Origin: Camelus ferus | Lineage: Eukaryota | Length of the DNA: 64,000 nt | Assembly: GCF_009834535.1 (NCBI RefSeq) | Contig: NC_045696.1 | Coordinates: 61,816,001 to 61,880,000, forward strand | Direction of reading: 5' to 3' | Shown here: positions 5,168 through 59,470 of the stretch, piece by piece | Position numbering within the stretch: the first letter of the stretch is position 1 | Layout of the letters: every line of letters starts with the position of its first letter | Program-made: the position numbers and the translations under genes | The notes under the pieces: generated by a model | Told to the model about the DNA's origin: nothing | Seen by the model: the letters and a program-made list of their open reading frames with translations, nothing else | Databases searched by the model: none

Positions 5168-5336
5168 GTGGGGTTTTTTTTTTTTAGTATTTTATTTTAT
5201 TTATTTGTTATTATTTAATTATTTTATTTTGGTAGTGGTGGGTCATTAGGTTTATTTATTTTTAGAGGAGGTACTGGGAATTGAACCCAGGACCTCATGC
5301 TAAGCATGCTCTCTACCACTGAGCTATACCCTCCCC
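5168..5336 (-). mobile_element. tRNA-derived SINE (Vic-1-like)
   Basis: Minus strand ggggagggtatagctcagtggtagag...gggttcaattcccagtacctcc; 14-bp TSD ccactctgaagttt at 5154-5167 and 5337-5350. Confidence 0.9.
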
Positions 5337-6530: not shown

Positions 6531-6631
6531 TTTTTTTTTTTTTTCCCTTAACGAAGGCACTGGGGATTGAACCTAGGACCTTGTGCATGCAAAGCATGTG
6601 CTCTGCCACTGAGCTACAGCCCCCAAACCCC
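6531..6631 (-). mobile_element. tRNA-derived SINE (Vic-1-like)
   Basis: A and B boxes on minus strand; poly-T tract at left. Confidence 0.85.
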
Positions 6632-8789: not shown

Positions 8790-8940
8790 TATTTTAAAAA
8801 ATAATTTACTTATTTTGTTTTTTGTTGGGGGAGGTAATTAGGTTTATTTATTTATTTAATGGAGGTACTGGGTATAGAACTCAGAACCTCATGCCTGCTA
8901 AGCATGTGCTCTACCACTTGAGCTAAGCCTCCTCACTCCC
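8790..8940 (-). mobile_element. tRNA-derived SINE (Vic-1-like)
   Basis: ggaggtaattaggtttattt tail motif plus tRNA-like head on minus strand. Confidence 0.85.
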
Positions 8941-9016
8941 AAAAATTCTTTATTCTCATCTTAATAAGGTTTTAGGAGGGAGTGAAAGTAAAATGTCTCT
9001 TCAGTCTGCTGTCTTT

Positions 9017-9339
9017 TTTTTTTTTTAATTTTTTTTGACACAGTGTGTCAATTTCTGGTCTACAGCATAATGCTTTAGTCATACATGAATATACACATTC
9101 GTTTTCATATTTTTTCACCATAAGTTACTGAGATATTGAATATAGTTCCCTGTGCTGTATAGTATGAACTTCTTGTTTATTGGGTTTTGTGAGAATCCTC
9201 CTGTATTTCAAAACAAGACACTGCCAGAGTTCAGTAGGTGTTCTGTGCGATTCAGTGAATTTGTAGATGTAATTCTTGGTGTATTTGTGGGAGAGGGTGA
9301 GTTGTGAGTCTCTACTCCACCATCTTGGCACCTCCCTCC
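9017..9339 (-). mobile_element. Bipartite mini-L1: ~159 nt L1 5' end fused to L1 3' end plus polyA
   Basis: Minus strand begins gggagggaggtgccaagatggtggag (L1-like start with YY1 motif); from 9180 it resembles the L1 3'UTR at 1492-1660; polyA; TSD cagtctgc(t/c)gtcttt at 9002-9016 and 9340-9354. Confidence 0.75.
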
Positions 9340-9379
9340 CAGTCTGCCGTCTTTATCCATAAATAAAGTACTCCCTCAG

Positions 9380-10470
9380 CATTTAAACATGTACAGATAT
9401 CTCTGTTTAAAAAAAGTCCGCCCTCTCTCATTTACTCAGGCTTCTTGAGCAGTTTTACATATTGTCTTCTGTACTCCTTCTTGGGTTTTGTCCTCTCCAT
9501 TCTACTAAAATTTCTTTTGCAAATGTTGTAAGAATCAGATGGACACTTTTTAATTCTTACCTTGCTTGACCTCTCAGCAGCCTTTGACTGACCATTTCCC
9601 TCCTTCTAGAAACTTTCCCTAGCTTTCCTAACACCACACTTACCTGATTTTCCACTTTATTTCCCGGTCATTCCTTTTCTTTACCTTACTTTTACATGCT
9701 AGAGTTCCTCAGGACACTGTCCTCAGGTGCATTCCCTTCTACCATTTACAAATTGTCCCGAGGTGAGCTTATCATTTTCTGTAGCTTTGGTTACTATAAT
9801 CTGATGACTTAAACTGGGATTTCTGTGCTATCTTCTTTTCAGAGTTCCTGACCTGTATGTCCAACAATATGCATCCACTTGGATTTCTTACAGTCACCTC
9901 ACATCTAACATGTCTAAAACTAAAGAGATAGCCAGTATAATCTTCCTCCCATCTTTCTCCATTGTTCTGTATAAACTATACCACCATCTCCCCAGTAACT
10001 CATACTGAAATTCTTACCCTCTCACCCCCACAGGCTTTCTCTCAGTCTTGACATTTCTGACCTGAAAAATCTCAAGGTCGATTCACTTTGCTACTTCTCC
10101 CAGTTTTCCTTTAATCCAAGCAGCTATTGCACTTTGCCAGCATTTACCTGTAATAGCCTCCTAACAGGTTTCCTTTGCTGTGGCTTTCTTCCTACTGTTC
10201 TGCACACTGCAGACAAAATTATCTTTTTAGCCATACTAATCAGATCTTATACACCTCTTTGTCTTTCAGTGGCTTCACACTACCTTTATGTTAAGTAGCA
10301 GCATTATTAATTTAGCTTTTCTATTCCTTGCCTACCTCTCCAGCTCCTCCTTTAAGTGATATTGAAGTTTTTTTAGTTCCTTGGCATACTACATTCCCCC
10401 TCCTGGGCTTCTGTTTATCTGTTCCCTTTGCCTAGGTACGTTCTCATCCTTTGTCTCAGCTTAAATATCT
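9380..10470. mobile_element. L2 LINE remnant
   Basis: Pyrimidine-rich L2-like motifs (cttgacctctcagcagcctttgac; aacatgtctaaaactaa; taatagcctcctaacaggtttccc-like). Confidence 0.6.
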
Positions 10471-10594: not shown

Positions 10595-10718
10595 TGGGGG
10601 AGGGTATAGCTCAGTGGTAGAATGCATGCTTAGCATACAAGAGGTCCTGGGTTCAATCCCCAGTACTGCCACTTAAAAAACAAATAAATACATAGCCTAA
10701 TTACTCCCCCCAAAAAAA
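10595..10718 (+). mobile_element. tRNA-derived SINE (Vic-1-like)
   Basis: ggggagggtatagctcagtggtagaatgcatgcttagcat...gggttcaatccccagtac plus A-rich tail. Confidence 0.9.
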
Positions 10719-11496: not shown

Positions 11497-11703
11497 TTTT
11501 AAAAAATTAAAGTATAGTTGGTTATATATATTCTTTTTTATTATAGGTTATTACCAGCTATTGAATACAGTTCCCTGTGCTGTACAGTGGGACTTGTTAT
11601 GTATCAGTTCTGTGTATAGTAGTGTGTATCTGCTAATCCCAAACTCCTAATTTATCCCTCCCCACTGACCTTTCCCCTTTGGTAGCCATAAATTTATTTT
11701 CTA
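11497..11703 (-). mobile_element. L1 3'UTR fragment
   Basis: cagttccctgtgctgtacagt...ctaatcccaaactcctaatttatccctccc, homologous to the other L1 3' ends here; flanked by tatacacat repeats. Confidence 0.7.
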
Positions 11704-19270: not shown

Positions 19271-19990
19271 GAAATTTGTGTTGGTTCTTTTATCTTATAT
19301 TCACTTGAGAGCCAGACTACAACTGGATGAGAGCACCTGATAGAGTCCTGAGTCCTGTCTCCACATAGTCACTCAAAAAGTTTTTGACCGATGGACAGAG
19401 GGGAGACTGGTCCCCCTTTTGAGATACTGATATTTCATGAATGTATTGAATTTATGCCTGTGGATGACTAGACAGAGCAAAAGTACTTGCCCACCCTTTC
19501 TAAAATTTGCTGTATGGAACAAATTGTTTTCATATGGACTCAGTCTTAAATGGTGTCTAGTCCCCTGTCCTTTCTCTTTCATTTTACAAATGAGAACACA
19601 GAATTTGAGTGCCTCACTTAAAGTCACTTAGCTATTGAGAAGCAAGGCCAACACTTAAAAATTCTCTCCTGATCCGTGCCCTGCCTACGACATCAGAAAC
19701 TGGCTGCATATTGGAAAATGATCCTTGAAACTTACTTCTGTCAGAGGCAGGTACAGTAAATGCAGTCATGTTGGAATACTCATGTCTTCCCTCTTTAATT
19801 TTCACTGTGAGGAAATCTTGATCAGGTGGAATCTCACTAGGTCTGATAGTGTAAATTGGACTTCATGTGCTTTTCTCCAATTTTCTAACTCATACTGTGG
19901 TGAATAATATGACCTTATTTTTAGGGTAGAAATGTAACTTTTCTTTCTCTTCTTTCCAGCTGCTTCCAGGTCTCATTATGCATCAGAAAA

Positions 19991-21500
19991 ATGAAAAAAC
20001 AGAAGAAAAGTCTATGGAGGAAAAGAATCCACTTAGCCTTTTCTGAGAAATGGAATACTGGGTTTGGAGGCTTTAAGAAGTTCTACTTTCACCAACACTT
20101 GTGCATTCTGAAAGCTAAGTTGCGAAGGCCAGTTACTTGGAGCAGGCAGTTGAGGCATTTCCAGTGCAGAAAGAGGGCCCTTCAAAACCAGAAAACGTGG
20201 AACCAGGATGAACCCCTTATTGCTAAGGCAAAGTCCAGTGTGGCTGCTCAGAATCTTAGTACTTTGTCCTCTAAAGTGAAGAGAAAAGACACTAAACACT
20301 TCATTTCCTCCTCAAGGACACTCCTGAAATTTCAAGCAGAGAAGTTGCTGTCATCAGCAAAGAATTCTGACCATGAATACTGCGGAGAGAAAAATCTCTT
20401 GAAGGCAGTTGCTGACTTACCAGCAAATTGTGTGTTAAGTCAGGCCAATGGTCACAGACCTAGGACGGAGTCACAGGCTTCTGACTTTCCTATGAAGTTC
20501 AATGGGGAGAGCCAAAGTCCAGGTGAGAGCGGCACAGTTGTGGTCACCTTGAGCAACCATAAGAGAAAGCGCTTTTATTACGGCTGCTGCCAAGGGCTGG
20601 AGCGCCACAGGAATGGGGGACCCCTGATTCCAAAAAATTTCCAACTTAAGCAACATAGAAGAATAAAAGTATCTCTTCATATGATGTATGAGAAATTATC
20701 GATGATTAGATTTCGGTACAGGATTCTCAGATCCCAGCACTTCAGAACAAAAAGCAAAGTTTGCAAGCTAAAAAAAGCTCAGCGAAGCTGGGTGCAGGTC
20801 ACTGGGGACCATCAAGAGACCCTTAGGGAGAACCGTGAGGGTGGCAGTTGCAGCCCATTCCCTTCCCCAGAACCTAAAGACCTTTCTTGTCAGCATCAAC
20901 CATACCTTTCAGATATGGACAGCAATGCTGTGGTGAAGGGAAAGAACTCTCATGTGCCTGATGGCCACGCTAAAGGAAGCCCTCTCGTGGGCAAGGAGCT
21001 TAGTTTAGACGAAGCATTCCCTGACCAGCAGAATGGCAGTGCCACATATACCTGGGAACAGTCACCCTGTTCCTCTCCTAAGTGGGAGTGTGCAGAGCTG
21101 ATTCATGATTTCCCCTTACCAGAACATCGTTCTAGTAGTGTGTTTATCTCGGAAACTGAGAGAGAAGCTATGGCTCTGGGTCAGGAAAATCGGACAAGTA
21201 CTGTCAATGATGACAGAATAAAACTGTCAGAGTCTGGGGCAGATCAGTCTGTAAGTAGTGTAGATGGGCCTGTGTCTGAAGAGACTGTTCAAAATGAGAG
21301 CTCATGCCAGATGGATGAGGATGGATCATTCAAGCAGAACATTCTTAGTTCTAAGTTGCTGGACCACCCTTACTGTAAAAGTCCACTGGAGGCTCCTCTG
21401 ACGTGCAGTGGACTCAAACTAGAAAATCAAGTGGGAGGTGGGAAGAACAGTCAAAAAGCCTCTCCAGTGGATGATGAACAGCTGTCAATCTGCCTTTCTG
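19991..21500 (+). CDS. SENP5: SENP5 exon 2 coding part (exon starts 19960); long N-terminal region, 503 codons + 1 nt
   Basis: MKKQKKSLWRKRIHLAFSEKWNTGFGGFKKFYFHQHLC...DDEQLSICLS is recognisable SENP5; acceptor ttccag|19960; donor CTG|GTATGC. Confidence 0.95.
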
Positions 21501-24444
21501 GTATGCACTCTTCCTTTATTCTCCCCAGTCTCCAGCCACACTTGCTGTCCATTGTCCTATCTAGGAGAGTCCTGTTGTTTCCTTCCACACATGGATTTCC
21601 CTTTAAGCAAGTAGACATTCTTTTTGAAGCCTTTGATATTGCTGTATTATATAGATGTTCCATAACTTACTTAATTCTTGACTGACGGACACTTGTGTTG
21701 CTTCCAGTTGTTTCCTTCTATAAACAATGGTGCAGTGAAATTACTTCTTTATACTTATACAGTTGTTTCTGTAAGTTAAATTCCTAGTAGTAGAATTGAT
21801 GGTAAAAGAATACTCACACTTAAATTTTTAAGTTAATTGCTAAGTTACCCTCCGAAAAGTTAAACGAGTTTGCACTTGTTAAACTTTGCTAGTCTCATAG
21901 ATTGCATGAGAATTCTTTGTTTTAATTCTTTGTGTTTTTAGGTTTAAAGTTTGAACATCTTTTTCTATGTTGGCCATTTTTTATTTGTACATAATTTTCC
22001 TTTGCCTATTTTTCTGTTGAATTGTTTATATTTTATTTAATATATAAAAAGCTCCTATGTACCAGGCACTGTACTAGTTCTAAGAATGTAGCAACAAACA
22101 GGATACACTGATTCCTACCTTCATGTTCCTTAGCATCATTATAGTTTTAAAGATGTTAAATTAAATTTTGGTAAAAGCCTTCAGTATCCTGACTTTGTAA
22201 CTGATATTTTTGCTCAACAGAAAACTTCAGTTCTTACATAGTACAATTTATATGTCTTTACTTTATGGTTTCAAGTTTCTACATCATGCTTTCAAGTCTT
22301 CTTGTCAAAATCTACCTCCATGAAGTCAGTTAGTATAAACATTCTTGGAAGACAGTAGAGCAGTATCAGTCTTCAGCTCATTCCTTTCCTTGTAATTTGT
22401 CCAAGATATAAAAGAGTACAAATATATTTGTACAGGGACATTACGTATAGTATAGTCTTGGTAGTAAAAACTGAAGACAGCAACAAGTGTTTCTATGGAC
22501 ATATAAATTACAGCACATCCAGACACTAGTATACCATGAAACTGTTAAAGAAAAAATTCAATCTTTATTTTGATACTAACCATTGTCTATGTAAAGTCAA
22601 AAAAGCAAGTTGCAAAACAGAAGGATGCCGTTTTGTTAAAAGATATATGTGGACATATGTAGGATGAGTACATATATGTACGTGTGATGTGCATTTGTAT
22701 AGGACAAATCTGGACAGATATATCAAAGTGTTATAAATGTCTTATTCTGGGGAGTTAGGAGAGTTCTTAGTGGTTTAAACAATTCTAACACTTTGTTTTC
22801 TTAACTATTAAGTATGTATAAAAAAGCTTTTCCCACAAAAAAGACAATACAGAGTCCTAGGAAATCTTTAAAAAGATAATTTGTTGTTTATTCTGTCCTA
22901 GAATGAAGATAGATTTTCCTACTATGAGGTTAGCAGAACCATGATTCATAAACCTGAAAAAGTTAACATTTACCCACAAATACCAGTTAACTTATAAATA
23001 TAGATGTAGCACTTCCAAAAACAGTTATTAAATTGAATATATCCTATAGTAAAACTGCAGCATGACATGAAGACATAGGAATTGTCATAGAATTCGTAGT
23101 TCATGATCTGTACTGTAATTATTTTAATAGGCTAAGGGAGAAAAACCATGGCACCTCAGCAAGTACTGTAGGCTTGTTTCCCTTATGTTTAAATCTCTTA
23201 GAAAACTAGAAATAAAGAAAACTTCCTTCACTTGGTAAAGAATATCTGTCAGAAACCAATAGCAGTTCCAGGTTTAAGAGGATGAAATAAGCCCATGGAA
23301 TCTTTTCCTCTCCTATGAAATCTATAAAATTGTAGAAAATATGTTAAAAACATGTGTGTCTCTGTAGTCAAAAACAAGAAGAGTTTTGGTGGATCACAAA
23401 CAGAAACTCCTACATGGCAGCAAGTAGAGACAGGGTCCAGAGAGGAACCCCAGCAGCAGAAGGAAGATTAGTGCAGGAAAATGGTGCAACACTGGGAGTG
23501 TCCCATTTCTGGAGATAGTGGAGGTGAGGAGGAAAGGGGAGACTTATTGTAAAAGGTTGAGGAGTTGGAGAATCTCCACAAAAGCATCTCTCCCTGCCTG
23601 TGCCACATCCCAGCAGAGAGGATATCTCTTATCAAGCTGAAATCCCTCCCCTCAATTTTACTGAAATATAATTGACATACAGCGCTGAAATTCTAAGGAT
23701 AGGTGGGGAGACACAGGACATTTCCCTCTCCCCCTGCTCCATTACTTGTAACACCTGACAAGAATGAAGAACAACCCTTTCCAGAACAGTGTTGGAGGTT
23801 CTTAGCATCCCCACATTGAAAACAGTTCCAAGACATAGCAAAAGCTCCTGTCCATTACAGCCCTCCCTCCACCCAGCAAGTTACTCAAGTAGTGATGAGC
23901 CTACATCTACCACCAGACATCTGAGGAAAGCCAACACAATGGACGAGACAAAACAAATAAGAGAACTAAACCTGAGTAATAAGAATGAATAGAGCAATCA
24001 GAATAAGAATCAATATAGGACAATCAGTATGGTAGATACTCCTTTGACTGACTGACAGCATTGTTGCATGGTATGCTGAATGCTGGCTCTTCTCTAATAT
24101 AACTGCATGTTATGCTCATTTTGTATTTATATATTTATTAAGATCCCATTTTACTTATTAAAATTTACTTTTTGTTTCATGTTTTTATCAAATACTGCAT
24201 CAGCTGATGAAATATGAATTCAGAAAGTTACTCCCTTCAAATCAAGTTGAATGCTTTGCAGTGACAGTAAGTTGCAGAAAAATAATACTGGGTTATATTT
24301 GTACAAGACAACTTTAAAAGATTTGAGGGAGGATAGAAAAATCTAGATTGTATTCAGATTAGCTATCTGTTTTGGAAGGATAAGAAATAGATTCCTATAT
24401 CACAATATATTCCAGATGGATTAAAAATTTAGTTAGAAACAGAC

Positions 24445-24925: not shown

Positions 24926-27489
24926 CAACACAAGAGACCATTTTTTTAAATCTCATGTTGATAAGACATTTTAAGCATGGTGGGAAACTCAAAAGTAATA
25001 AAAATGTACTAATTTGATTCCATAAATGTTAAATGAATTAAAGGTCATCAGTAGGGAATTGATTAAAATGTGGCAAATCAACTTAATGGACTACTAGATT
25101 GTTTTGAATTGACTTAGGAAAAATAAAATTCATGTATTGAATGGAAAAAAGTGGCTTCAAGAAGAGTGAGTATAGTTTGCTGTTTACATGTTTCAGACAT
25201 ACATGTTCATAAGGGCAAAAAATTTCTAAAGGAATTACGGATTGACTGCCATTTTATTTTAAAATGTTTATGGTCCTATGTTAGGAAAAAAACTACTTAA
25301 AGCTTGTTCCCATTTCAAGTTTATAAGAGTATTCAATCCTATTTTCTTCTCGACTGTTAATGTGTTATTTTTACATTTAGCTGTTTGGTAAAAGGAAAGA
25401 CGGATCCTCACCTCATTCTTTACACCAAGATGAATTTCAACTGTGAATAAAATGTTTAGTCAGTAATTCTAATACTGTTTACTGATTAATTCATCTTTTC
25501 CCCATGATTGCCGCTTGCCATTTGGATCCCTTTCTAGTTGGTTTCTCTCCATAATAACACTGTTGTGCTTTAATTACTGTAGTTGGTTTTATAGTTCAAC
25601 GGACTTGGCCCTCCTCCTCTTCTCTCTTGCTCCTATTCACCTCTTTCCTTAAAATCCTTACCAAAAATTTCTAGGAATTTCCTACATTTTTGTTGCACAA
25701 TGAATTTGGGGTTTATTTTTAAATTAAACGAACAATGGTGTTTGATTTATTGCATTATATTAATAGATTAATCTAGGGAAAATTGCATTCATTTCAATCT
25801 GGAGTTTTCCTGTTCAAAAAACAATTACTCCATTTATTGACCTATGTCCCTTACTAAAATTTGGTAGTGTTTTACACATTCCTTAAGTTTATTCTTCGAT
25901 ATCTTACACCTTTGTCATTTGTGGTGGGACCTTTCTGATGTGTATTGTATGTTTTAGGAGAACCAAATGGCTGCATTTCTTGTGTGCACAACACAATGAA
26001 CACCTTTCCACTTATAGGGTGGGATGTGACCCAAGTCAGTTGTCTAAAGAAAAAACTGTCCACTACAGTTGATTTAACATGATGAGTAATTTAACTTCTA
26101 AAATAACATCTCAGTTTTTGTTTTTCATATTATTACTTTTTGTACTTTCAGGATAGAATATAATTCAAACTCTAGTTGTTGTTTTGTTTTTTCCTAACAT
26201 TTTATCCTTTGTTTCTTGGTCATATTGAAATTTTAGTACTTTTGGAGTAAAAGAAATTGTGTGTTCCAAATGTTTTTTCCTTTTTGGTTCCTTGGTTTGG
26301 TAAAAGCAAGTGGATAAAGAATAATGAATTTAACTCTTTTTAAGAAGTCTGTGTTCTGGCCCACGGATATTAAAAGGGAAAGGTAAAGTGAAGAACTAAG
26401 TTGTTTATGTAGAGAAAAGATAATAGGTATTTCCTGCTTAGGAGGTGGCACAGCATAGTAGTTAATGGCTCAGTTTCTGTTGTCGCATAACCTACAATCA
26501 TCTTAGTTCTGCCGTGTGTTCGTTAAGGGTCCTTGGGGAAGTTACTTAACCTCCTGTCTCCATTTGTAAAGTAGGGATGCTTTCTAACACATAGGATAGT
26601 TAAAAGGATGAAATGAGATATGCTAGTGCTCGTCTTATGAGTGCTTTTTAACTGTTGTTTTACTTCTGGTCCTAGTGAGATAATGGTGTGCATCAGAGAG
26701 ACGTCGTTAGGGTTCTCTTTGAAGATCAGGTAGGGTCTTTCTACTGCGTTAGGAGTCCATGTTTATCATCTGAAAATGAAAACAAAAATATAGATTAAGA
26801 GGAAAAATATAACAACTTAACCCCCTCCCCTCCCCCAGATACTACCATCCAGAAATAACATTGTTAGTGAGGACACTCTTGTTACATGTTTGGAATTGGA
26901 GTCCATGTCCCTTTGATAGAGGAGACTGCTTTCATATTTGGAGGGTCTCAATTAAGGTTGCTGGACCTAAAGTTTAATTTTTTGTTATTAGGGGCATTAC
27001 TTTTTATAAAATTTATTCCTTAAATGCAGTTTCTCAAATGTTAGGATTCCTTATCGTCTGTTGAGGTCCATTCTCCCATGTAGACACAAGGCTCTGCTTG
27101 GATAACTATAAGGTATGATACAGTAAACACTACACGGAAACATAGGCTCTGTTCCTAGTTTGGAAGTCCCAAATCTTCACCTCCTACTCTGGCTAAACTG
27201 GAGCACAGAACTCCCTTTCTGTTTTCCTTATGCGTAAAGCCTAGACCAGAACCATACATAAGCAAGCACCTTTTTCCTGCTTACTACATCCTACCTTTGC
27301 TCTTGTCTTAAGCCTTTCAAATTGAGAGCCACTCTGGTGGGAGACTGACAGGAGGAAAAAAAGGTTTTTCACACTTTTCTCTGTCCTCTCCCTTAACAAA
27401 ACACTCCATTCCCAGTCACTCTGTTGTGATTATTCCTGTTCATTCTGTATTGATGCATAGCAGGGGCCATTCTTCAAGTTAGAAAGGGG

Positions 27490-28648: not shown

Positions 28649-28802
28649 GTTTGTTAATGATGCTTAAGTTAAGCCCTTGAAAATAAAATTGTTGACATAT
28701 ATGACTTTTCTCTTGATTAAAGAAAAAGATACTTAGCAATAAATCGAGTTGAACTTATGTGTTTTTTTTTTTTTTCCTTTTCTTTCAAAATATTTGTTTC
28801 AG

Positions 28803-28941
28803 AAAACCATTTATCAATAGGGAAATAACAAACTATAGGGCCAGACATCAAAAGTGCAACTTCCGCATCTTCTACAATAAACACATGCTGGATATGGATG
28901 ATCTGGCAACCCTGGATGGTCAGAATTGGCTGAATGACCAG
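28803..28941 (+). CDS. SENP5: SENP5 exon 4
   Basis: KPFINREITNYRARHQKCNFRIFYNKHMLDMDDLATLDGQNWLNDQ, containing the Ulp1-family WLND motif. Confidence 0.96.
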
Positions 28942-29203
28942 GTTAGTGTATTGTAGATTCTCAAAGTGGAAAAGTTGCAGAGGATGTTGGACAATAAAAT
29001 ATAATTGATAACCTCTGGGTTGGTCTCACAATTATCTTTTGGAATCAAGGATTCTTTATTGCTTACTGAAGTGACTTATTCATTAATCCCAGTATCCAAA
29101 AGGCTTGATTACTATTAGCAGTATCAATATGTTATTCATTCTGAATGGGGCATTCTGAATTGGATAGGGGTTAGTGAGCTGGTTTTATGTTGACTTTTTG
29201 TAG

Positions 29204-29251: not shown

Positions 29252-29874
29252 GTAAGTGAAAATTTTCTCTTAATTCAGGAGGGTCCTTGTATATTAAAGG
29301 ACTTTTGTTTTGTTTTGTTTTTTAACTATATAATTATTTGATATTTCTTAGATTTTTAGAAAACATTAGGTTTTGTCTTTGTCTTGTGCTAGGGTTGGGC
29401 ATAAGTTCTGTAAAGTCATGTCAGCATAAGAAAGTCATGATCCCAGTGTTTTCCTGCTTATTTGTTTCGGAGTGGATTTTTTTTGATATCTTGAGGAGGC
29501 TTTTTTTTTAAGTAGGGAGATGCACAAAAGGGATTATTTGATTTACGGTTTTAAATTTAGCTTAATGTCTTACTCCCTTTAAAAATGTAGTAAAGTAGTA
29601 TTCATTTTCATTTTTTCTTGGATTAGTCTTTGATAGTTCAAATACAGACCACCCCCCTTAAACTCTAAAATTCCCTTAAGACCTTAATTACGCATCAGAA
29701 CTTTTAAAAAATTTAATATGTTAATTTTTCTTTCTGAGTGTTTAAATTCCCTGATGGGCAGCCTTTGATTTCAACAAGCAAAACCTTTCAAGTTCTTCCT
29801 TTTTCAAGGTCTGTCTTCCCTCGATCCCTCCCTCCCTCCCTCGCTTCCTCCTCCCCCCACCACCTTCCCTTCTT

Positions 29875-29950
29875 GTAGGTACTGGGGATTGAACCCAGGA
29901 CCTTGTGCATGCAGAGCACGTGCTCTGCCACTGAGCTATACCCTCCTCCC
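29875..29950 (-). mobile_element. tRNA-derived SINE (Vic-1-like)
   Basis: ggtactggggattgaacccagg...ccactgagctataccctcc. Confidence 0.85.
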
Positions 29951-34566: not shown

Positions 34567-34689
34567 AGGGTGGGGGGTGTAGCACAGAGGTAGAACGCAT
34601 GCTTGGCATACATGAGGTCCTGGGTTCAACCCCCAGTGTCTCTGTTAATGAGGAAAAAAATAAAAGTAAAAAAATTAATAAATAAAAAA
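34567..34689 (+). mobile_element. tRNA-derived SINE (Vic-1-like)
   Basis: gtagcacagaggtagaacgcatgcttggcat...gggttcaacccccagt plus A-tail. Confidence 0.8.
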
Positions 34690-48944: not shown

Positions 48945-51214
48945 CTTAAGTATAATTATTAAGGAATTAGCATTTCTCCAGACGTTTTTATAAACAGAGG
49001 AAAAAACATCGAAATGAAACTGAGTTAAGAAAAAGTACAAAAACCAATCCAACCTGATGGAGTTCAAAGACAATAATGTGGCTTGCACAGGCCTGTTTGA
49101 GGTTGGTCCAGGAGCACTTAGTCAGATATGACATTTATCCATGGCTACACTGATCATGATTTTCTGGATAATCCTATTAATTATCTGGTCCTATATTTTG
49201 GTTTGCAGAATATAAAATATGTTCAGTGCAGGCTTAAACCACGGACTATTATCCAAGGAAACAGTAGCATCCAAATTAGGAGCTATATATTCAAGAACAA
49301 CCTTAAAAAGAGGTCACAGTACCTACGAGTTGCCATTATATTTCATTAGAAGGGAAGTATCACTCAGATTAATGGTTCCAAACCTATTTCATCAGATCTA
49401 CTAAATCTATGGGGTGGTATTCAAGAAAAAAATCTCTATGCAATTATGTTTATTAACTGGGTTTAGAAAATACTGATCTGGGCTTTTTCCCCTTGTCTTT
49501 AATTACACAGGTAGGGAAACACTTGTTGAAATCCCAATGTCCAGTATCTACACAATGCCTAGCACATAGAGGGCATTCAATAATTTTTTGTTGAATAAAA
49601 TGAATGCTAAAGGGCACACAGAAAAAAACACTAGCAGTGAATGGCAGCCTCTTTCTGGTATTTGCCTTTAAGATCGTTGATCTTTGAACTTCAAGGCAAA
49701 TGCAAAAACACCCCAGTTCTTAGAGCCTGGTTATTATCTAAGAGTTTCTTTGCCTTTTTGTCCCCTGTGAACTATTTTACACTATTGTCACCATCGGTGA
49801 AACTCATACCTTGTGGAAGAGGCTTGCAGAACCCAGAAATCAGATTCCAAAATCAAAAGTGCAAAACAGGTTCAAAGTGGGTCTTCTGGTTTAAGTTGAT
49901 AGAATGAGCACACTTTTCCTTCGTTCCTTCTCAAGGCCCCCATTAAAACAACAGAAAAGAAACACAGACTCAAAGAGTAGAAGAGGCCATCAGCAGACTA
50001 GAGATTGGGTAAAAGCTGAAGAGTGCTAATGGATGAAGTAGTCACAGTACAAAGTACTCTTGAAGGGCCTTAAAGAAGAGACAGCAAATTCAGGAGGCTT
50101 TTAATTCAAAGTTGAATAAGGAGTGAGGCTGCAAATAGGGTCTAATTAAAGGTTTTTATGTGGGAAGACGACCTGCTGGCAGGAAGGCATTTAATCCAAG
50201 GCAAATAAAAATAAAATGACAGGGTTCTGAACTAACTGTCTGGAGGAACTAGGGCATTGTCTTTGATGTTAGCATGCCAAAATAAAATCCCTTTTCAAGC
50301 TAGCATTTGAGAAACCCGTATGTCCCAAAGGCAAGGCAGCAACTTAAGCAGCCCTACCTGGTTCCACTAAGTCAGCCTTCTTTCCCCTGATTATGACCAG
50401 AAACCCAGGGATCACCAGAATAAAGAGATTTACAGCATAAACACAACCGAAAGAAACGATTCAGGGTACAGTAAAGAAAACTCAAAAGACATGTTATGTC
50501 TGATCAGGTCTAGGAAATTTCTCACACAAAATGACCAAAAATAAAAATATTAGTTAAAAAACAAAACATCAGGATAAATCCAGACGGTCCAGTATTTGGA
50601 GAGTTTCCAGGGAGAGAACAGTCACACATAAATACAGTTTTGATTTTGACTTATAAGATCAAACTACATACATCTACATAATAAAATACTACGTAGCTAC
50701 CTTAAAAAGAGGTAGATCTATGTGAACATGGAGCAATCTCTAAGATGAGTGGGGAAAAAAAAAGTCCATGCAGTACACTACCACACATCCATAGGATTAC
50801 TTCTGGAAAGAACCATGAGACTCGTAACTGATTGTTTCTGGGCTTAAAAGAGTTCTTTTTGAAACACCATGAACATATACATTCTCAAAAGCCTTTTTCT
50901 TAATCAACTACAAACGAAGTGTGGATTTCAGAACAGGATGTAAATGTTACCAGCTTTCCCAGTGTAGGTGTAGACGACAGGACGGTACAGCTCAGTGGTA
51001 GAGCATGTGCTTAGTATGCATGAGGTCCTAGGTTCAATCCCCAGTACCTCCATTACAAGAAAACTTTTTCAATTAAAAAAAAAAAAAGATTAAGGAAGGA
51101 GAGGTAGTAAGTGTAAGGACACTCATGAGCGAATAGCCTCAGTCATTTTTCAAAACAGGTAACCAGCCACTCTCAGCCCCACCCTTCGCCAACAGCTGCA
51201 TCAGACAAGGATAC
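48945..51214 (-). other. NCBP2: U12-type (minor spliceosome) GT-AG intron 2 of NCBP2
   Basis: 5'SS GTATCCTTG (51214-51206); branch site TTCCTTAAT (48966-48958) just upstream of the AG; no polypyrimidine tract. Confidence 0.92.
50976..51088 (+). mobile_element. tRNA-derived SINE (Vic-1-like) inside the U12 intron
   Basis: cagctcagtggtagagcatgtgcttagtatgcatgaggtcctaggttcaatccccagtacctcc plus A-tail. Confidence 0.88.
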
Positions 51215-52034: not shown

Positions 52035-52394
<360 letters not shown>

Positions 52395-56656: not shown

Positions 56657-58224
56657 CTATGGCTGAATCTTGGGCAGTGGACTTCCTGTCATATTGTCAG
56701 GCTTCTCCCCCAGCTCCAGGATGTGAAGGCTGAGAAGGTCCCTCCAAGCCCCACTCAGCAGGGAGGACAGGGATGGTGGGTCCTCAAGGGTCACGTGAGG
56801 AAAGATGAGTGTCTCATTCTTGAGGGGGAAGCTGCACTTCTTCACAGCGGGCCTGGCGGTGCCAGGGGTCACCACAAAAAGACGGCAGAGCCATGGCCCA
56901 CCAGCCACCTGGCAGGCCGGCTGTCTGATGAAGCTGTTCAGGGCTTGGCACAGGACCCGGTCCTCAGTCCCACCCATGTCCACCACCTCCACAGGCGACC
57001 CCAGGCCTGGGAGGTGTAGGAGGTGCCGGGGGGGCATGTAGGTGTGGGTGAAGAGGAGCGTGTAGTGGGTAGGTACCTGCGGGAGCATGGGAGTGTGAAC
57101 CACCTGCTCCAAGTGCCCCAGGCCAGGCAGTAGGCCCCCCTGGTGCAGGCAGCCAAAGAAGAGGGCACCCAGGGCATTGAAGAGGACCAGAGTGCCCTTG
57201 TGGGGCACGAGCTGGCTCTGTGGACTACAAAGCAGAACTAGGGGGACCAGGAGAGGGATCAGGAACCGAGCCTCCTGGTGGCTAAAGGCAGACAGCAGGG
57301 CCAGGGGCATGAAGTAGAGGAGCAGGAGGTGAGACCTGGGGCAGGACCAAAGGCTCCGGGCGCCCAGCATCCTCGGGAAGCCTGTTGGTGCGAAGGCCTG
57401 GAGGCAGGCTTGTAGCTGTTGCCACGCAGCCTGCAGGGCCTGGGCGTGCAGCACCCCAAAGAGCAGGAAGCCATTGACTGCCAGGTGAGTGAGCCGCATA
57501 TGCGTGCCGTGCCTCGCCAGGTTTACAGGATCCAGGTTGTAGTGCAAGAAGTTGGCAGGTGTAAGGACAAGGGTACTGGATCTAGATGGACTGGAGAAAT
57601 ACCAGCTGTCCACAGCCACAAACACTGCTGCTGTGAGGGTCGCCCCTGGGAGCAACACCAGGGCTTCCTTGGTCAGTGACTTCAAGCTGGAGTTTGTGGC
57701 TCCATAAGTTCCCCAGAGGAAGAGGGGGACTAGAGCAAAGGCCAGAAAGGTGGGCCGGTTGAAGAAGCCAGCAGCCACAATGCCCCCAAGAAGCCAGCTC
57801 TGCCACCACGGTCCTGGAGCAGGCTTCATGGGTATAGGGGTCCAGGCTGCACGGGGGGATACCAGTACCAGCAGCCACGCAAAGAGCAGTCCCTCGATGG
57901 CATTGGAGAAGGTCCTTGTGTAGAAGACCAAGGTGACATAGGAACCAGACAGCAGGACCAGGGCGTTCCAGCGCTCCGCCCCCCAGCATGGGGCCAGGTG
58001 GTACACAGCCATGTCCAGGGCAAAGGAGAGGGCAGTAAGGAGGAGTCGGGGCCCCACCAGCAGCACGTAGCCACTCACTGGGCCAGGCCATGCCCCCGAC
58101 TCTTCCCAGAGCCTGAGCAGCCAGAAGGCAGAGCCAGAGGTCAGCAGTGGGAAGACCACCGTGCGGCAGGGGCTGCTGGGGTGAAACTCCCATGGCCGTG
58201 CAGCCTCTATGCCCAGGACGTCCT
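56657..58224 (-). CDS. PIGZ: PIGZ (GPI mannosyltransferase 4) last coding exon, intact
   Basis: ctgcag| acceptor then (E)[27 protein letters not shown]...[12 protein letters not shown]...FFNRPTF...[11 protein letters not shown]...HQGG; multi-pass membrane protein of the ALG9/PIG-B/SMP3 type; open to TAG. Confidence 0.95.
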
Positions 58225-58329
58225 CTGCAGAGAGAGAAGCAGGGGTGAGCCAGGTCCAAGCTCAGAGAATGTGATAGACAAAATTCTAGGATGGCCATCA
58301 TGGTTTCCCAGCCCTCTACTGTCCAAGCC

Positions 58330-59470
58330 CCAACATAATTCCTGGGACTGGGAAGATGATGGATTTTACTCCTGTGATTAGGTCACGTTGCCGGGGACAG
58401 CTGATCCTAAGATAGGGAGATAACCTGGGTGCGCGTGACAAAATCTCAGGAGCCCTTTAAATCAGTTTTCTCCACCTGGTGGCAGAAGAGGACATCAAAG
58501 ACGAGAAGGATTTGCTGGCTTAAAGATGGAGGGGGCCATTGTTCATAGCAGCACTATATACCATAGCCAAGACATGGAAACAACCTAAATGTCCATCAAC
58601 AGATGACTGGATAAAAAAGACATGTGGTATATATACACCATGGAATATCATTCAGCCATAAAAAGAGTGAAATAATGCCATTTGCAGCAACATAGATGGT
58701 CCTAGAGATGATCATACTAAGTTAATCAGACAAAGACATATCAAATGGTATCACTTGTATGTGGCATCTAAAAAAATGATGCAAATGAACTTATTTACAA
58801 GCCAGAAATAGACCCACAGACAAAGAAAACAAACTATGGTTACCAAAGGGAAAAGGGGGGGTGGGGATAAATTTGGAGTTTGGGATTAACATACACATAC
58901 TATTATATGTAAAACAGATAAATAACAAGGACCTACTGTATAGCACAAGGGGTTATATTCAATATCTTGTAATAACCCTTAATAGAAAAGAATCGGCAGT
59001 ATATATATATATATATGTGTGTATGTATGTGTGTATATATATATATATACACACATACATACACACACATACACATACATACATATATATTCAGATACAT
59101 ATATATATCTGAATCACTTTGCTATACACCTGAAACTAATGTTGTAAATCAACTAAAACAAACAACCCCCTCAAAGATGAAGGGGGCCATTGGCAAGGAA
59201 TGTGGGTGGCCTCTATGAGCTGAGAGCAGCCGTTGGCTGACAGCAAACAAGGAAATGGGACTTAGTTCTATAGCCTCAATAAACTAAAATTGTCCAGCAG
59301 CCAGAATGAGCTTAGAAGCAGACTTCCCCCAGAACTTCCAGACAAGAAATCAGCCCATACCTTGTGATACCCTGAACAGAGAGCCCAGGCTGGACTTCTG
59401 ATTTACGGAAATGTGAGCTAAGAGTTTTAAGCTCTAGATTTCTGATGGTTTGTTACGCAGCAGAAATGAA
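58330..59470 (+). mobile_element. MLT1-type MaLR LTR split by an L1 insertion
   Basis: MLT1-like motifs on both sides (gattaggtcacgtt...taagatagggagataacctggg; aaggaatgtgggtggcctcta...gacttctgatttacggaaatgtgag). Confidence 0.7.
58542..59172 (+). mobile_element. 5'-truncated L1 3' end with internal (TA)/(CA) microsatellite
   Basis: Homologous to 918-1660; 20-bp TSD aaagatg(g/a)agggggccattg at 58522-58541 and 59173-59192. Confidence 0.88.

Follow-up and report, generated by a model that had tools for sequence, protein, structure and literature searches.

The element described here lies on the minus strand of the window, the whole 64-kb stretch of DNA analyzed. The host is a mammal whose L1 heads resemble those of pig, and the look of its SINEs suggests a camelid. 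Two exons, at 19925-21682 and 28753-28953, have Pfam matches to SENP3_5_N, and the second also matches SENP3 and SENP5 structures. The element is antisense to these exons and upstream of them, probably within intron 1 of a SENP5-like gene. At 56657-58261 (-) lies an intact frame of 533 aa for an Alg9-like mannosyltransferase (Pfam PF03901), and a short GC-rich open reading frame (ORF) that has no Pfam match occupies 52035-52394 (+); from the gene order, we take these two to be PIGZ and NCBP2-AS2, respectively. Repeats are frequent in the window. Seven tRNA-family matches from Rfam (5266-5333, 6552-6623, 8860-8932, 10600-10671, 29874-29945, 34573-34644, and 50981-51052) mark the heads of a single short interspersed repeat, with matches of ∼74 to 87% between most pairs. 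An L1 3' end spanning 1-1680 contains a long GAA/GGAGAA microsatellite at ∼1145-1365.

The minus-strand insert at 9017-9339 comprises 323 nt enclosed by TSDs (Table 1), in agreement with the earlier note, which had described an insertion of ∼325 bp between 15-bp TSDs with one mismatch. That single mismatch falls at a CpG. In the 64-kb window, the TSD pair is the sole 15-nt repeat outside low-complexity sequence that combines at most one mismatch with a spacing of 300 to 400 nt (one match). The insert shows the TSD, the poly(A) tail, and the AT/AAAG endonuclease-type site characteristic of TPRT. It is bipartite, built from LINE 5' and 3' ends alone, and carries no ORF: no ATG-initiated frame longer than 50 aa overlaps the element, the longest reaching exactly 50 aa. 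Compared with the copy at 1492-1680, the 3' block is missing ∼20 nt before the tail (alignment A2). No Rfam match lies inside 9002-9354, the nearest tRNA-like match (8860-8932) being a separate element, and this interval shows no Pol III head derived from tRNA, 7SL RNA, or 5S RNA as a SINE in the strict sense would have. The AATAAA that spans the junction was considered as a functional signal and rejected, as it is a product of the decayed base 9181.

Table 1. Parts of the insertion, listed in the 5'-to-3' direction of the element
Feature	Position	Strand	Basis or remark
5' TSD, 15 nt	9340..9354	-	Starts with AAAG after AT, an L1-endonuclease-like site
L1 5'UTR head, 159 nt, predicted first exon of the spliced RNA	9181..9339	-	Likeness to L124-L129 and pig LINE/L1 heads
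Presumed YY1-type motif CAAGATGG	9320..9327	-	Adjoining base 9319 is CpG-decayed in the window copy
Head/tail junction	9180..9181	-	AG acceptor observed; GT donor likely by homology
Terminal L1 3'UTR, 144 nt, predicted last exon	9037..9180	-	75.5% over 143 nt to 1492-1631
Poly(A) tail, A8-TT-A10	9017..9036	-	Sequence
3' TSD, 15 nt	9002..9016	-	Sequence

The insertion is also present in a second species, organism B (run X11), where the 161 nt compared contain a single difference, at 9349, and this difference affects the other base of the CpG that is decayed in the 3' TSD copy. The insertion is therefore older than the split of the two species. At 9319, the CpG letter is present in 912 of 3,032 depth units in run X1. 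Depth is zero over 8940-9029 in all four runs, where reads seem to be cut, and the comparison between runs covers the element apart from its left TSD and tail.

The L1 origin of the head follows from two collections. A degenerate head motif matches six stretches in metagenome contigs (L124-L129), five of which share 74 to 79% identity with the head over 76 to 123 nt, the sixth sharing a 26-nt match. The heads in L124-L129 run on into long GC-rich sequence without a tail, and the contigs stop short of an ORF. The second collection is the pig L1 library of PMC6501411 (supplementary file 1), which was searched with the motif and whose matches were compared by eye. Here, the motif occurs 47 times, each time at the start of a consensus labeled LINE/L1, which identifies the head as L1 derived. 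The ∼159-nt L1-like 5' start (9339-9181) proposed earlier is thereby confirmed, and the head of other origin for which the earlier note had left room is not what was found. BLASTN of the element against the window returns no second head copy within the 64 kb. The head motifs have no match in the collection of genome contigs (0 and 0) or in viral contigs (0), and a 14-mer scan of the viral contigs yields chance matches alone (123 loci, the best of them a 24-nt BLAST match). A BLASTN search of plasmids and phages gives no match, and the head motifs are absent from the supplements of two camelid papers, PMC6675863 (nine files) and PMC6726744 (four files). As a separate observation, L128 contains a 43-nt tandem duplication inside its L1 head, at ∼300-370 on its minus strand, which doubles the search motif.

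On the acceptor side, the window L1 3' ends at 1492 and 58918 both begin to match exactly at element base 9180, which bears out the abrupt switch at 9181/9180 into L1 3'UTR sequence that had been reported previously. The claim that AG precedes the homologous point holds for the two copies then cited (1490-1491 and 58916-58917). Two further L1 3' ends, one on the minus strand near 11600 and a poorly aligned one near 27450, have TG instead, so that AG is found in two of the four L1 tails in the window. Sequencing data extend this comparison. Four of the 24 runs listed (X1, X11, X24, and X16) were matched to 8940-9470 at 80% likeness, and loose ends at 9180 occur in 433 contigs of X1, 498 contigs of X11, 554 reads of X24, and 181 contigs of X16, forming the largest class among those listed for X1, X11, and X16. 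The commonest loose-end consensus at this position reads AG on the element strand in all four runs. The parent L1 thus has an AG acceptor immediately before the 3' block. A pyrimidine tract is absent at this acceptor, with 4/16 and 8/16 pyrimidines in the window copies and 7/16 in the X24 consensus. In the X24 consensus, a TACTAAC puts the branch A at -19, and there is no intervening AG; the consensuses of the other three runs (X1, X11, and X16) read TACAAAC. In the young L1 copy at 1452-1491, a branch-like CTGAC stands at the same distance from the AG with two AGs in between, and the subfamily of this tail might splice to another acceptor or to none.

On the donor side, multiple alignment A1 places the junction on a GT column in all five of its heads; L128, omitted from A1 because of its internal duplication, has the GT as well. 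At the homologous place, the 47 pig consensuses read GT in 25 (L1B1-12 and L1C1-13), GC in 21 (L1D), and AT in 1 (L1A7). The register can be followed from a common CAC, which by eye is 8 nt from the junction in the element and 8 nt from the GT in pig L1B9 and the L124-type heads. The exact register is critical, as a shift by a single base would undo the GT-AG reading. When the head by itself is aligned pairwise, 9 of 30 alignments end at the GT (2) or one base before it (7), two of these 9 having other equal-scoring ends, and the remaining 21 end 9 to 22 nt upstream. Other copies carry G at 9181 in 1,297 of 2,640 depth units across 28 contigs of X1, in 31 contigs of X11, in 13 contigs of X16, and in 6 of 16 reads of X24. 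A G here fits the -1 position of a donor, as expected, and the A of the window copy is the expected product of CpG decay. One G alone is common to both sides, which gives a microhomology of 1 nt. Records 10 and 22 match four bases beyond the junction and then stop, which fits a GTAA donor in register and is given little weight. By homology to the related heads, the host L1 likely has a GT donor at this point.

The pig families show a pattern of their own at this site. L1D, the youngest family according to the available part of PMC6501411, has GC in all 21 consensuses, compared with GT in all 25 of L1B and L1C. The GC of L1D could reflect selection against this splice. With this contrast, the copies make it directly testable whether the donor is abandoned as L1 lineages evolve.

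The junction is not confined to the window copy. The 24 longest records were classed, with 20,939 further records standing outside this count. Six of the 24 are bridging records that extend 31 nt or more to each side of the junction (two from X1 and four from X16), and three more bridge it with 29 to 30 nt. The rest comprise four unspliced heads that run into 60 to 301 unlike letters, two records of the window locus, and nine records that stop before the junction or too close to it to be classed. The bridging records differ from the window copy by 10 to 15% and the four clearly unspliced heads by 12 to 15%. Five bridging records mutually overlap in X16, a run in which the right flank of the window locus has zero depth, and two carry 524 and 3,464 nt of unrelated sequence past the head. 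In record 1, three of the final four bases of the head (from_end 71, 70, and 68) seem to differ from the window copy, which argues against an assembly path through the window locus. With alleles allowed for, the junction is present at several other loci, at least two or three in X1 and at least three in X16, and contig counts at 9181 suggest tens of such loci. The junction pattern has no match in the metagenome contigs, a collection with just the six head-motif stretches described above.

Depth at 9181 amounts to 89 to 181 times the single-copy depth in X1 and 134 to 277 times in X11, figures to which unspliced heads contribute and which were rejected as a measure of copy number. In both DNA-type runs, it is less than 6% of the depth at 9172, so that a small fraction of L1 tails is in the joined form. 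The match of record 18 ends at 9135 with 56 letters remaining, while that of record 1 continues to 9111, a difference that hints at two types of tail. The bridging contigs of X16 are from RNA, and 6 of 16 raw reads of X24 carry G at 9181 together with at least eight other differences. Both may originate in intronic genomic copies, and the X16 contigs are for this reason not accepted as proof of expression.

The element is a recurrent by-product of LINE-1 and not a one-off, and it is most likely splice born. A splicing origin as such, whether the copies arose independently or by self-amplification, is considered highly probable. Within it, we favor, as the probable course, repeated independent events in which an L1 RNA was spliced from its 5'UTR to its 3'UTR and the product was mobilized in trans as a retrocopy. 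In a full-length L1 RNA, a donor ∼159 nt into the 5'UTR would be joined by the spliceosome to an acceptor ∼165 to 190 nt before the 3' end, ORF1 and ORF2 being lost together as one intron. The polyadenylated, noncoding remnant of ∼330 nt would then be reverse transcribed into an AT/AAAG site by the proteins of another L1, a step that would produce the TSD and the A-tail. The splice event would recur, each time from some full-length L1, and give rise to a class of copies that are mostly dead ends like the human SpIREs. The earlier note proposed that the insert was retrocopied from an L1 RNA that had lost both ORFs through splicing. The L1 head, the GT in related heads, and the recurrent junction support this proposal; the combination of a missing GT and a single-copy junction, which that note had set against it, is not observed, as related heads have the GT and 6 of the 24 longest records bridge. 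As for the independence of the copies, the bridging copies are no nearer to the window copy than are the unspliced heads, and the tails of records 1 and 18 seem to differ, which faintly suggests separate events. The similarity argument is weak because much of the distance is the window copy's own decay.

The same splice might instead have founded a SINE-like family, the second suggestion of the earlier note. One or a few spliced copies that kept a sufficient part of the internal Pol II promoter would have been recopied in trans by L1, so that 5'UTR-to-3'UTR splicing would have made an ORF-less, Pol II-driven, self-amplifying L1 parasite here, perhaps independently in several mammals. Such a family would be the first in the L1 clade to be both bipartite and ORF-less. 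A nonautonomous family of this kind is a tentative reading that we consider unlikely, though the best placed of the alternatives. It draws on the single fixed junction in several copies and on the depth at 9181 in X1 and X11, which, while no copy number, is high for a rare splice. The head also retains 159 nt, compared with 97 nt in the human SpIREs of the available passages of PMC5860796, and the retained start site and YY1-type motif form a predicted part of a promoter. On the other hand, the copies are 10 to 15% from the window copy with no homogeneous group visible, and the tails of records 1 and 18 are possibly of differing types. The passages of PMC5860796 also report reduced promoter activity for human SpIREs and judge them dead ends, and the easy full-length insertion of short RNAs could raise the copy number without a master.

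Less probable still is an origin without splicing, in which an internal deletion or a template switch of the reverse transcriptase, occurring once and then amplified or repeated at a hot spot, made the join and the AG and GT are coincidental. An AAAAT-like run does stand 3 to 4 nt before the junction on both sides, the pyrimidine tract is poor, the GT of the host donor is read from homologous heads, and the available passages of PMC5786205 attribute the bipartite LINE derivatives of other clades to internal deletion. Against this, the join directly follows AG and coincides with GT or misses it by no more than one base, a combination with a rough chance of 0.008 at a random join, conditional on the homology. 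The join also retains head-specific letters beyond the AAAAT-like run, so a switch would not have taken place inside the homology. A single-copy accident, either a postinsertion deletion in a full-length L1 or two adjacent insertions, would accord with the lack of a second head in the window and of the junction pattern in metagenome contigs, yet it is very improbable given the six to nine diverged contigs that span the junction across three runs, the five overlapping X16 bridging contigs where the window's right flank has zero depth, the distinctness of record 1 from the window locus, and the one TSD pair that surrounds both halves.

If the favored reading of repeated trans-mobilized splice products is correct, spliced L1 retrocopies extend from small 5' trims in primates to the removal of the whole coding body in a nonprimate, and the copies would be the trace of a splice by which an L1 transcript becomes a noncoding competitor for L1 proteins. 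Such copies may escape notice, as repeat annotation would likely report each as a pair of unrelated L1 fragments. Should the self-amplifying reading be true, it would provide a route to SINE-like elements through splicing and not deletion.

No account of an L1 class spliced from 5'UTR to 3'UTR came to light in the literature searched, a set apart from Repbase, Dfam, and Belancio 2006, the last of which may include acceptors farther downstream. A survey of L1 chimeras (bioRxiv 10.1101/2025.02.02.635956) describes, in its available part, joins of mRNA to L1 and not 5'UTR-to-3'UTR splices of L1. The closest known relatives are the human SpIREs, retrocopies of spliced L1 numbering 116, 4, and 11 copies and ∼2% of full-length L1PA1-6 in the passages of PMC5860796 available. 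They have a donor early in the 5'UTR, where the window element has a likely one, and share with it a fixed recurrent junction and L1 sense order on both sides. The acceptors of SpIREs in these passages (620, 788, 851, and 974) lie in the 5'UTR or early ORF1, and the rest of L1 is kept; in contrast, the acceptor of the window element lies in the 3'UTR, both ORFs are lost, and the resulting element of ∼0.33 kb would be wholly dependent on L1 in trans. Although SpIRE-like in its workings, it belongs to neither described SpIRE class, both of which have their acceptor in the 5'UTR or ORF1, and it keeps no ORF.

SpORF2 and other spliced L1 RNAs, as far as they are covered in the passages of PMC2896524, use 5'UTR donors at 97 and 290, and long internal parts are removed by the spliceosome, as is proposed here. 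Their SpORF2-type acceptors (1837 and 1920) keep ORF2, and they are RNAs and not a genomic ORF-less class. HAL1, in the available passages of PMC5786205, resembles the window element as a nonautonomous, internally shortened L1 derivative; it retains an ORF1-like gene, in contrast to the window element. RIME, NARTc, Bov-A, and RTESINE in the same passages likewise consist of LINE 5' and 3' ends, carry no ORF, and depend on a partner. Bipartite LINEs are reported there just for the RTE, Ingi, Vingi, and R2 clades, internal deletion is blamed for their origin, and no word beginning with "splic" occurs in that paper. Compared with RIME, NARTc, Bov-A, and RTESINE, the window element belongs to the L1 clade and appears to be bounded by splice sites, and an amplification of its own is putative.
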